Positions 52,825 to 58,131 of a stretch of 64,000 nucleotides of DNA are shown one piece after another. Below the pieces are notes generated by a model. That model saw nothing but the letters and a program-made list of their open reading frames with translations, was not told the origin of the DNA and made no database searches. The first letter of the stretch is position 1. Each line of letters begins with the position of its first letter. Origin of the DNA: Callorhinchus milii (taxonomy: Eukaryota); the NCBI RefSeq assembly GCF_018977255.1, contig NW_024704762.1, positions 7,254,001 through 7,318,000 of the forward strand. The letters run 5' to 3'. Made by a program: the position numbers and the translations under genes.

Positions 52825-55800
52825 TCAGTATGGCTCAGCCCCGGAGAGGTTCGCCAGCTGGATCAGTGCCAAGGCCCCATGCCACCGCTCCCTCTGCTCC
52901 TGCAGGTGCTGCCAGGCACAGGTCTGGTCCCGTTCGCTCCCTCTCGCCCCGGCCTGCTCCTGCTCCGAGCTCTGCTCATCCAGTCCCCCCTTCACACCCA
53001 CAGACCGTTGCTCTCGAGTCTGCCAGTATCTGAGCAAGAAGAAAAGGAAAAGACACTTTAAGGATAGGTGCATAATAATAATCTTTTCATTTGGTATAGC
53101 GCCTTATCATGTCATTGAGACGTCTCAACCTGTTTCACAGCGTATATTGTAAAGTGAATTGACTGTATTTTGTGGAAAATATGCATGAAAGAGTGTGATA
53201 AAGTGCGTGCGGGGCAGAGGGCGTGCAGGGAGAGAAAGACTGCAATAGAATGCGCGGGGAGAGAGAGCGCGCGACAGAATGTGCGCCGGGAGTGATTGCA
53301 AGCAAGAGACGCAGCGAGCAAACCAGACCCATCTCGGAGCAGTTGGGAGACATTTCTGTGCCGCACTCAATCAATCAGTCACAAGGTTATTTATTATAAT
53401 AGAGAGAAAGGAGTGTTGGTGGCGAGAGCAAAAGGATTTCTTGCTGAAAGTTCCTAGCGGGCAGTGCTGTGCCCCCTCACCTGGCCAGCCACTCCGCCAC
53501 AGCCTCATCAGCCTCGCTCTTCCCAGTCCTGCCTGGCTCGCTCGCGCACTCCCGCCTCATCAGCCGTGCGTAGGGGTGCTTCGAGCAGCGACGGTTGGCG
53601 TGAGTGAACTTGCTCGCACAGCCTGCAGGGAAGTGAAAGCTCCCGATTATTTTGCCCGCCCGAAATGACTTTGGTGATCTGAAACAATGACTTTATCGGG
53701 CAACCATTCCAACCTGGAGCGAGGCGAGCGGCTCCGTTGGTCGGGCTCCGGGTCGGAAGGGTGTGGGCTCAAACCCCAGGACGTTGAGGACACAGTGCAG
53801 CTGGACACTCCAGTGCAGCTGGACACTCCAGTGCAGCTGGACACTCCAGTGCAGCTGGACACTCCAGTGCAGCTGGACACTCCAGTGCAGCTGGACACTC
53901 CAGTGCAGTGCTGGAAGCTCAGTCGAAATTATTCAGGTGGACTTTAAAAATCCAGCCTGTAATGGTCATTTTCCGCCACACGGTGTCGCTGTTTCTCCAT
54001 CAAAAAAAAAACAACCGGGTGGATAAACAGCGCCGCCCAGTGGCCACCACGAGCAAACGCGCTTTAATAAGGACTGGAACTTTTGACAGAAATTCCAGTC
54101 GTCTTCGATAATAATTTATACTCACATCAGCGCCTTTCAAGCCCCGAACCAATCCAACCGCAGGATTCAGACAAGGTTTCAAAATAGTTTCACGCATTAA
54201 CGCTGTTACGATGCTGATTAGATATTTTTTTAATCAACCACAACAACCGCAACAACTTGGGATTTATATAGCGCCCTCCGCGCCTGACGGCGTCTCAGAG
54301 CGCTTTGCAGTCACGGATCCCGGGACCGAGCCGGGGGGTGGGTGGTGGGGGGGGTGAGAAGGTGACCAAAGGCGCGGTCGAAAAGAAAAGTCTTCAGCAG
54401 AGACCTGAAAATGGGAAGGGAGGGAGCGAGACGAAGGGAGTGAGGGAGGCAGTTCCAGAGCCTCGGGGCGTAGTGGCTGAAGGCACGGCCGCCGAGGGTG
54501 GAGCGGAGGACTCGGGGGACAAGGAGGAGGCCAGACCCGGAGGAACGAATGCAATGGGCACTGTTTCGAGGAGAGGAGGTCAGAGAGGTAGGGGGGTTGC
54601 AGAGGAGTGGAGGGATCAGAGGAGCTATTCTTTCTAATACCACAACCCAGGCACTGGGTGCTAACCCCTCGTGAGTTTGTTCAATCTGACACCCTCTTTA
54701 CTGAAGACACTTTCTAAGAACAATCAATGGGATTTCAGTGAAGCAGAAGAACAAAGGTGAAATCTTCACACTTAAAATGTGACACCAAACAAAAACTCGA
54801 AGTGCAGTGCGATTACAGTTCTTGTCCCGTTTTGGGTCTAAAGGAAGCATTTTAGATTCATAGAAAGTTTACAGCTTAGGAGGATGTGGTTTGGTGTATG
54901 CTGCCTGCGCTAACGTTAACTTTATCACAGAAGCTATTTTCTCTAATCGCACTGCTGGTGCCAGTGCTGGAAGCAACTTGTAGGATGGGGACTTGGGTCT
55001 GGGACCAGAGGGATTCCGGTGGAAGTGAACCCCAAGCATCAGATTAGTGCACTGAATTAAGTGGGGGGTTTTTCCCCCCCTTGTGCAATAATAATCACAA
55101 TAATCCTTGCATTTGATATAGCGCCTTATCACGTCGTCGAGACGTCTCAAAGCGCTTCAATTCACTTACTGTAAAGTGAATTGACTCGTGTATTTGTGGA
55201 CAAAGCCTATGCTCTAAATAAAACTTTGCTCCCCTCCCTCCCTTTGCTCCAGTTACAATTCTTCCTGTGTAAAATGACTAGGAACGTGCTCAGTGCACTT
55301 GGGTTCCTGTGGTTACGTTGATTCGTGCAAGTCCCTTGATTGATCCCAGTCTGTAGCCCCACAGGACCCCCCTCTCACCTGGCTCCGAGCAGGTAAAGGG
55401 TTTTTCTCCGGTGTGAAGCCGTTGGTGAGTCTTCAGCTGCCCGCTCTGCACGAAGGCACGGCCACAGCCCGGGTAATCGCACGTGTAGGGTCGTTCGCCT
55501 GAAACGAGGGGAAACAAATCGTCGTCACTCTTCAGCTCACGGCAATAACAAGGTCAGGTTTCGGGGAGCCAACCCGCTTGATTCTTTTAAGAAATAACAC
55601 CTCGGGGTACAGTGTATGGCTTGGGACGTGACGTGTGCAAGCGACTGGCAGGATGGTGAAAGGAGAAACTGGATGGACCTTTGGCCTTCTTTCGTCCAGC
55701 AATTCTTACGTTCCACGCTTTATTCCGGCAGACAATAACTGGGAGCGAAAGCAAAGTCTGTCTACAAAAGTTGCTCGTCAAGATGAGAGCCATTGAAGGC

Positions 55801-58131
55801 TTTCACCCAATCTCAGGATCCAGGTCATTTACAGCACAGGTTATAATAATAATCCTTGCATTTGATATTTCAAGTCTTCGAGACATCTCAAAGCGCTTCA
55901 CAGAATATACTGTAAAGTCAGATACGAGGTAAAGCTCCTTTTATAGCCATCCCATCCAGAATTTTCAGGTTGGCTTCCTTGCTGGAAGGGAGAGGAGTGG
56001 TGAGTTGCCCCTTTACACAGCTGTGTAACTGGCCACAGGAAATATAAATCCGGGATCACAGAAGGAGCAGTGAGACACACGAGGCTCCCAACGTTGCGTC
56101 CCAGAGGAGCTCGTTTCTAAAGGTACCTTTCAGCGCCACATCCACTCACTCACCTGTGTGTGTCCTTTTGTGGGCCTGAAGGGATTTTTCTCGTGGGAAA
56201 ACGCGGTTACAAATCTCACAGCGGATTCGGCTGGTGGACATGGTGCCTTCCGTGATCAGTTCCCGGACAATCTCTCCCCGCGGACGGCCACGCCGAATCC
56301 CGTCCTGGAACAGACGGAATTATTTTACCACGACAACCACCCCGCAGCCCCTTGAGTACATCTAACACTCCGGCCTGCGGTTCTGTACTGCCTGAACTGA
56401 GTTCAACCGGGATCACTCGCTGTCAAAACCTGTAGGACGGGGACTTGGGTGTGGGACCAGAGGGATTCCAGTGGAAGTGAACCCCAGTAAGAGTCAGTGA
56501 CAAGTGGTGGTGGTGGGGGGGGGGGGTGAGTAGGAAGTTGAAAGAAGGAACACTGAATTGCAACAGGGTGTGGCCAGTACACGCCTTCCAACATCACTGC
56601 TTGAAAGTGATGAAACGCGATGATGATAATAATAATAATAATAATCCTCGCGCTCGACACAGCGCCTTATCTACAACTCCGAGGCGTCTCGAAGCGCCTC
56701 TCACAGGACATGCGGCGTGAAGTGAACCGACCGACCGTTGTGTCTCGCGGGGGGGGGGGGGGGTGGGGGACTCCACGAGCCGGTCAGGATTTTAAGAGGG
56801 CAAAAGCGCGTTTGAACGGGCTCGATGGGCTGAATGGCCTCCTCCCTGCTCCCTTGCAGCCGCAAAGTGACCGCAAATGAACGAGTCAAAGAAGCTGCAA
56901 ATTCTGGGCTCCCATTAGGACAGTGAGTGGAGTGGAGTGAAGTGAGTGAGTGAGTAAGTGAATGAATGGATGAATGAATCACTGGCCCCGCCCCCCCGCC
57001 CCGCTGCGCGCCTTCCAGCAGCCAATGGCGCTGCAGTTTCCTGGGCAACAGAACGTTGGCGCCCGCGATTTTGGCGCGTTTTCTCCGTGTCATTGAGAAA
57101 AAAAAACCCTCTCTCTCTCTCTCTCTCTCTCCCGTAGAGGAACCACTTGGGGTTACACTCTCGATGGCCACGTACTGGAGTGACAGTGAAGGCACTTAAA
57201 CCTGTCGTGATCAGTCAGGACCCCACAGGAGTACTTTGATAAGAAGTGTCTCCCCCCCCCCCCCCCCACCCACACACACACACCCCCCACCCCCACCCCA
57301 CCCCCACCACACACACCCCCCCACCACACCCACACACACACACCCCCCCCACCCACACACACCCCCACCCACCCACACAATTATTGTTCCCAGAAATTAG
57401 GTGGGAATCAGCCGGGATAACATCCTGCAAAGTGTCTTTTTTTTTAATGTCCAGATCTAATGCATTAAGGAAGGGTTTAAGAAGTGACCCCCACACCCCC
57501 CCCTACCCCACCATTTCCCCCCCCACCCCCTACCCCACCATTCCCCCCCCCCCCCCCCCACACCCCACCGCCTCAAAAACAAAATCAAATCAAACGCGGA
57601 CCAGGTCTCACTTTCCGCAGCCGGTGATCAGTGTCTATTATTATTATTATTACTATTATTATTTTTAATTTAAACTTTAATTGAACCTTTTTGCATTCGC
57701 AAACTCGATTTTTGTTTCTAGGTTTTTTAAAAAAAAAGTCAAATCGAGCCATAAGCTACAATACACCCCCCCCCCCCCCCCAACAACCACCACCCCCCCC
57801 CACCCCAACAACCCCCCCCCCCCACACCCCCCCCCCCCAGTTGGATCCGCTGCAGGACATGGTCAAAGCTCTTTACCTTGTAAGTGGGGTAGTCCGGGCT
57901 CTGGTGGGGAGAGGTCGATCCCGTTGACCCGGTGCTGGGAGTTGGACTCGGGCTCATGTGCTCGGAGTTTTCCGCCCATCCGCAGGGAAACACCACAGAA
58001 ACCCCCCCCAGACCCAGACCCAGACCCAGGTCCTGGGCACCGACCTTGGACTTGATCACAGACACCACCATCCTCTCGGGCGAGACGCGCGCCGCCGCCG
58101 CCGCCGCGCCCCCAGACATGATGATGTACAT
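52825..58131 (-). CDS. Zinc finger protein 367-like (divergent ZNF367 family member), 5 exons, ~290 aa
   Basis: Exons 57877-58131 (alternative ATG 58119), 56154-56304, 55379-55498, 53481-53622, 52825-53029; GT-AG, 873 nt open. [106 protein letters not shown] and C-terminal [19 protein letters not shown] are diagnostic of the ZNF367 family. Confidence 0.9.
53793..53908 (+). repeat. 18-bp minisatellite, 6 perfect copies plus a partial copy, in ZNF367-like intron 3
   Basis: (CAGTGCAGCTGGACACTC)6 followed by CAGTGCAG. Confidence 0.95.
54245..54615 (-). mobile_element. L2-clade LINE 3' end
   Basis: [41 protein letters not shown]. Other L2 ends at ~9860-10040, 12440-12700, 30870-31160, 32130-32325, 40900-41460 and 48380-48720. 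Confidence 0.82.

Follow-up and report, generated by a model that had tools for sequence, protein, structure and literature searches.

A second, intact ZNF367-family gene in the chimaera Callorhinchus milii, probably a whole-genome-duplication paralogue shared by cartilaginous fishes

A 64,000-nucleotide stretch of the genome of the chimaera Callorhinchus milii (contig NW_024704762.1, positions 7,254,001 to 7,318,000; hereafter the window) carries on its minus strand, at 52825-58131, an intact, spliced second gene of the ZNF367 zinc finger family, which is common to chimaeras, sharks and rays. ZNF367 is regarded as a hub of the proliferation programme that has a single copy and is regulated with age. 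We consider it very probable that the window gene is the beta ohnologue of ZNF367, derived from the second of the first and second rounds of whole-genome duplication (1R and 2R). With a second copy of that age, the jawed-vertebrate ancestor would have had two ZNF367 genes.

The window gene has five coding exons, every boundary of which is AG/GT. All lie on the minus strand. Splicing and comparison place the coding part of exon 1 (85 codons, with the paralogue-specific N-terminus) at 57877..58131, and splicing and Pfam place exon 2 (151 nt), with the RGRPR basic motif and C2H2 finger 1, at 56154..56304. Exon 3 (55379..55498, 120 nt) encodes C2H2 finger 2 and the start of an atypical third finger, exon 4 (53481..53622, 142 nt) the end of that finger and a conserved EWL helix, and the coding part of exon 5 (52825..53029, 205 nt with the stop) the W.GALALIQL motif, with no acidic run. 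The spliced frame of 873 nt gives 290 residues and a stop, and Pfam finds in the product C2H2 fingers and nothing else. The protein matches RefSeq XP_007896947.2 ('zinc finger protein 367-like', C. milii) at every residue, and the gene is already annotated under that record, without an orthology call. An earlier note on this DNA had described an intact five-exon gene with ZNF367-type fingers, and the open frame, the AG/GT boundaries and the RefSeq identity bear this out.

Splicing could be followed in contigs from two public runs of two studies, the runs being presumed RNA. A contig of run X2 spans 52440-53029 and then joins exon 4 (53481 to 53029), which also gives the minimum extent of the 3' untranslated region (52440..52824, minus strand), and a contig of run X4 joins exon 2 to exon 3 with a CT..AC skip of 655 bases. 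Both joints fall at predicted sites. The junction check proposed in the earlier note was therefore positive for two of the four introns; the contigs of six runs gave no cover or joint for exon 1 and introns 1 and 3, which counts neither way. The UniProt model A0A4W3HB12, named plain ZNF367, has a different first exon and draws its N-terminus from the intron-1 stretch 56406-56500. This N-terminus is an annotation error, and it conceals that of the paralogue in clustered databases. Two other features of the introns were seen: in intron 1, a CCAAT box with an E2F consensus nearby (57020-57077; E2F reached in 20/300 shuffles), and a tandem repeat of about six 18-base units, counted by eye, in intron 3 (53788-53910).

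Exon 2, exon 4 and the last part of exon 5, each used as a query, found exactly two loci in the genome, the window gene and one at 93.51-93.52 Mb of contig C1. The earlier note had proposed looking for a second, more conserved copy near CDC14B/HABP4, and it is present on C1, with a CDC14-type gene (DSPn, 93.44 Mb) and a HABP4-family gene (93.49 Mb) directly upstream. The C1 gene encodes 297 residues with the PTSPGF block, acidic run and L..IEL ending of bony-vertebrate ZNF367 records; its identity is 77-78% with the ZNF367 proteins of bichir and turtle and 55% with the window protein. Intron phases are equal in the two chimaera copies, and exons 2-4 measure 151/120/139 nt on C1 versus 151/120/142 nt in the window. 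Adjacency to HABP4 and CDC14B marks canonical ZNF367, and it is seen for the C1 copy and not for the window gene; no match to the CDC14 or HABP4 family was found on C21, the contig of the window. Contig C5 has other CDC14, HABP4-family and S1PR genes and no ZNF367 match. For the chimaera genes, THOP1, NCLN, CELF5, CDC14B and HABP4 are presumed names, based in part on Pfam families and skate labels.

A tree of 40 rows, including 12 invertebrate or unnamed outgroup rows and 17 bony-vertebrate rows picked by taxon, separated the two copies. The C1 protein fell in the canonical clade with bony-vertebrate ZNF367 (96/96) and the window protein in a separate paralogue clade with shark and ray records (99/99). 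After removal of five rows (four long outgroup rows and one mis-modelled primate) support was 99/99 and 97/89, respectively. Of the 31 columns in which C1 agrees with one of two differing consensus residues, bony-vertebrate or paralogue, it has the bony-vertebrate residue in 30. The outcome that the earlier note named as fatal to its proposal, a single locus nested inside the vertebrate ZNF367 orthologue clade, is thus not what we observe: there are two loci, and the window protein lies outside that clade. These comparisons put the duplication, at borderline strength, before the crown gnathostome split. Branches are longer on the paralogue side (stem 0.39, chimaera tip 0.44) than on the canonical side (0.28 and 0.20), in keeping with the faster evolution reported for beta segments (PMC10115646).

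The chromosomal surroundings point to 2R. The order S1PR3-type receptor, spindlin, ZNF367 recurs on C1 (92.91/93.09/93.51 Mb of a 139 Mb contig) and on C21 (7.10/7.14/7.31 Mb of 10.7 Mb); the spindlin gene that follows the S1PR3-like gene on C21 has its sole other match at C1:93.09 Mb, and RGM and CELF paralogues lie on both contigs. There are six sphingosine 1-phosphate (S1P) receptor genes in the genome. The sixth, the S1PR3-like gene at about 7.100-7.101 Mb of C21, is 200 kb from the window. Its best PDB match is S1PR3 (439 bits vs 537 for the C1 gene), it is 61.5% identical to the C1 S1PR3-type protein, and the two genes are sisters in two trees, with support of 100/97 without and 86/84 with the receptor encoded in the window. 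It is likely the 2R partner of S1PR3, and it may correspond to the extra S1P receptor subtype described in ray-finned fishes and coelacanth (PMC6504862). In the earlier note it was instead the pair of S1PR4 and the ZNF367-like gene that mirrored S1PR3 and ZNF367. We rejected this part of the proposal: S1PR4 belongs to a different branch of the S1PR family and is a mere bystander here, and the counterpart of S1PR3 is the separate gene at C21:7.10 Mb.

The skate has a similar arrangement. The supplement of the little skate genome paper places Znf367-1 next to Thop1 and Ncln on Leri_29C, and Znf367-2 next to Habp4 on Leri_3C (PMC10115646), copies whose orthology to the chimaera genes we infer from neighbours rather than sequence. 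Supplementary Information (SI) Table 3 of that paper assigns LER3 (chicken Z) to 2alpha and LER29 (chicken 28) to 2beta of a fused C+L unit (PMC10115646), and 2R pairs in elephant shark and chicken typically comprise one large chromosome and one microchromosome (PMC8302630). The two loci thus have the marks of a 2R pair, namely collinear paralogous neighbours (C1/C21) and positions on alpha and beta segments of one unit (skate LER3/LER29). Because synteny, the skate chromosome assignment and the large/micro pattern come together, a 2R alpha/beta pair is the best reading. The whole-genome-duplication paralogue proposed in the earlier note is accordingly supported by the second locus, the trees, the collinear neighbours and the 2-alpha/2-beta assignment in skate. 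S1PR3-type receptor, spindlin and ZNF367 could also serve as a three-gene marker for a 2R pair of the chicken-Z/chicken-28 type.

Among the best 120 of 374 matches to an exon-2 protein search, the window's own record and nine shark or ray 'ZNF367-like' records stood at the top, with a tenth slightly lower. Cluster look-ups added 12 species, bringing the elasmobranchs with paralogue records to 22. These shark and ray orthologues are 69-73% identical to the window protein and share an N-terminus. The earlier note had suggested retention in this lineage; the gene is not confined to the chimaera and is shared with sharks and rays. A search of 50%-identity representatives returned family members in 2 of the 150 rows listed and otherwise many-finger proteins. 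The Atlas named the family and had nothing for the N-terminus.

The protein keeps the DNA-binding part of the family and changes around it. The window protein has features that define the family: an RGRPR motif followed by two C2H2 fingers, whose recognition residues are RKSA and QGQT, and a C-terminal GALAL-type motif. RKSA and QGQT were found in 25/26 and 23/26 paralogue rows and in 111/111 and 107/111 canonical rows, the remainder being unscored, and wherever scored they are equal in paralogues, canonical copies and invertebrates. Because the recognition-helix residues are identical, both copies are predicted to bind the same DNA motif and hence to share targets. In the atypical third finger (HANRHC..H) the Cys and last His are retained, and the His before the Cys is Arg in the window protein. 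The His is retained in 22 of 23 scored paralogue rows, the chimaera being the one with Arg. Two invertebrate rows have the same Arg, and its codon is covered by a contig of run X3 whose two differences fall elsewhere.

Outside the fingers, the N-terminal motifs described in the earlier note lie at 58083-58048 and 57993-57955, and the C-terminal HGALAL motif was found, as claimed, at 52881-52864. The window protein opens with the same residues as its shark and ray orthologues and lacks the PTSPGF block of canonical ZNF367, which could be a proline-directed kinase site. It also lacks an acidic run, as the earlier note had said of the last exon. Shark and ray orthologues retain this run, so its loss, judged from the sequences, is chimaera-specific, and we rejected it as a hallmark of the paralogue. 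The GALAL-type motif is conserved from insects and molluscs to both vertebrate copies, with a W..IQL ending in the paralogue versus L/M..IEL in canonical ZNF367. This helix may resemble SIN3-binding helices; a genome search for SIN3 PAH gave no match spanning the whole PAH domain. With fingers and C-terminal helix kept and the N-terminal block changed, the two copies offer a natural comparison of protein parts.

The promoter gives a mixed picture. One putative E2F consensus site (58273..58280, plus strand) lies about 140 bases upstream of the ATG; it is the only one in the 400 bases upstream, a count reached by 5/300 local shuffles, and the C1 copy likewise has one within 400 bases of its ATG (9/300). 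The single CCAAT in the same stretch of the window is at chance level (140/300), the stricter RRCCAATSR has no match upstream of the window ATG, and the C1 copy has three CCAAT upstream of its ATG (3/300). Cell cycle genes homology region (CHR) elements number 0 in the promoters of both copies. E2F and CCAAT motifs had been offered as a sign of retained cell-cycle control; of the two motifs, CCAAT was rejected as evidence. In the skate fin, comparing anterior with posterior, both Znf367 copies change by about 2.2-2.4 in log2 fold, and the four markers picked (E2f1, Mcm5, Ccne2 and Cdc6) all change in the same direction. This pattern is weak and is consistent with a proliferation-linked, partly redundant factor; together with the E2F site, it lends modest support to retained cell-cycle control. 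Human ZNF367 is a DREAM target, among 268 p53-DREAM-repressed genes (PMC6753476), ZNF367 regulates neuroblast proliferation in Xenopus (PMC6081467), and the human protein binds DNA irrespective of methylation (PMC13444138).

We propose that the S1PR3-SPIN-ZNF367 block was doubled at 2R, that a macrochromosome (C1; LER3 in skate) would have kept the alpha copy and a microchromosome (C21; LER29 in skate) the beta copy, and that the beta copy would then have lost the PTSPGF block and, outside the fingers, evolved more rapidly. It might act as a transcription factor that is driven by E2F, is linked to proliferation and is in part redundant with ZNF367, and its loss in bony vertebrates could therefore have been tolerable. 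A less probable idea about function, which we hold only tentatively, is that the beta copy is a rewired competitor that occupies the same sites and docks a corepressor by the ancestral C-terminal helix, with the phosphorylation block lost. Progenitor proliferation in cartilaginous fishes would then be under a second regulator, controlled in a different way, which bony vertebrates would have discarded.

Several observations weigh against a 2R ohnologue under cell-cycle control. The skate fin data give a weak signal, with adjusted p of 0.026 and 0.049 in a table of which about half or more is negative, and the six E2F matches across the whole window are at chance (32/100 shuffles). One X2 contig reads on from exon 2 through 117 unspliced bases of intron 1 (56305-56421), which may be pre-mRNA or a second start. 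The tree, which has distant protostomes and unnamed records as outgroups and no lamprey, hagfish or amphioxus rows, cannot alone separate 1R from 2R, and by itself dates the node only to before crown gnathostomes. A 1R origin is nevertheless very improbable, since the skate chromosomes LER3 and LER29 are a listed 2alpha/2beta pair of one unit (PMC10115646) and the 1R side, C5, has no ZNF367 match beside its CDC14, HABP4-family and S1PR genes. Descent from a segmental duplication inside cartilaginous fishes, before the chimaera/shark split and followed by fast evolution, would fit a paralogue seen in chondrichthyans only among the matches listed. Forcing C1 to group with the paralogues was not rejected by the approximately unbiased (AU) test on the full 40 rows (p-AU 0.055) and was rejected only after row removal (p-AU 0.039). 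However, C1 groups firmly with bony vertebrates in both trees, and the paralogue retains residues common in the invertebrate outgroup at sites where C1 has a different residue in common with bony vertebrates, such as the W at position 272, found in 10 of 12 outgroup rows. The S1PR3-like neighbour, if correctly identified, has reported counterparts in ray-finned fishes and coelacanth (PMC6504862), and both chromosomes are a published 2R pair (PMC10115646). This explanation is thus largely refuted, and we give it very little weight. Least probable of all is a decaying pseudogene or assembly artefact. The long terminal branch, the lost acidic run and the third-finger Arg would suit decay, yet the frame is open with canonical splice sites, two introns are spliced in contigs of separate studies, orthologues persist in sharks and rays, and the Arg recurs in invertebrates.

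The strongest rival to a gene limited to cartilaginous fishes is that some bony vertebrates, for example coelacanth, lungfish or gar, still have the 2R ohnologue in a diverged form that has gone unrecognised. The exon-2 matches listed are 120 of 374, and a word-based N-terminal search is blind to a diverged bony-vertebrate orthologue; in the skate genome paper, 17 and 24 ohnologues are shared by chondrichthyans with coelacanth or ray-finned fish, compared with 19 retained by chondrichthyans alone (PMC10115646). Against survival, none of the bony-vertebrate records among the matches listed carries the paralogue, and its C-terminal W occurs in 0/111 bony-vertebrate-type rows (9 unscored). A query made of the 84 N-terminal residues of a shark orthologue had 10 matches among 34 candidates, all elasmobranch. 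In the literature searched, names of the type znf367a, b, l or -like are splice variants of one study only. Such survival is therefore unlikely, though less so than the other origins considered above. The sequences compared suggest that the paralogue was lost in bony vertebrates, and we think it probable that the 2R beta copy is restricted to cartilaginous fishes.

The window gene lies between a single-exon S1P receptor (43415..44575, minus strand) and the last exons of an M3 peptidase, THOP1 (61482..63999, minus strand, by Pfam), which is also a neighbour of skate Znf367-1. The receptor is called S1PR4 for its position beside NCLN and its long branch; S1PR3 is its best PDB match, and the 23 chains listed include none of S1PR4. 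A THOP1 exon (window 63192-63410) used as query found itself and a weak match on C16 (37%), with no neurolysin-like C1 match among 3 candidates. Between CELF and NCLN, a 73-codon frame at 12808-13026 (minus strand) resembles a coiled-coil exon and has no Pfam match. Further along C21, a WFIKKN-type gene (Kunitz, Ig, NTR) at about 7.092-7.096 Mb is tail-to-tail with the S1PR3-like gene, and spindlin, short-chain dehydrogenase and RGM genes occupy 7.136-7.210 Mb, between the S1PR3-like gene and CELF. The dehydrogenase is presumably HSD11B1-like. RGM has three matches in the genome (C21, C1 and C22), and on C1 the same 179-codon open frame occurs twice, inverted, at 93.595 and 93.614 Mb, about 19 kb apart. 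A local duplication after 2R has been proposed for S1P receptors (PMC3405040); C21 and C29 have two receptors each, and alternatively a tandem pair may already have existed before 2R.

The literature searched, mostly open-access, held no description of a second ZNF367 copy or its ohnologue status, and nothing on ZNF367 was found in the searched supplement parts of PMC13450315, PMC10927551 and PMC8302630. The copy may already be among the 19 ohnologues counted in the skate paper (PMC10115646). The retention pattern itself is established, and what is gained is one well-supported case and not a new principle, along with a warning that databases mislabel the two ZNF367 copies in sharks. Compared with ZNF367 of jawed vertebrates (also ZFF29 or Zfp367), the window copy is alike in its five coding exons with equal intron phases, two C2H2 fingers and an atypical third with identical recognition residues, GALAL motif and E2F site within 400 bases. 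It is unlike ZNF367 in being 55% identical to the C1 copy, with its own N-terminus without PTSPGF and a W..IQL ending, in lying on a microchromosome between S1PR4 and THOP1, and in having one CCAAT, at chance level, where C1 has three. The 'zinc finger protein 367-like' records of cartilaginous fishes, that is XP_007896947.2, those of the 22 shark and ray species and skate Znf367-1, are the same gene and one clade, with no orthology call attached. Like the ohnologues retained by chondrichthyans and lost by bony fishes (PMC10115646), the window gene is a probable beta-segment copy that shows faster evolution and, probably, differential loss.

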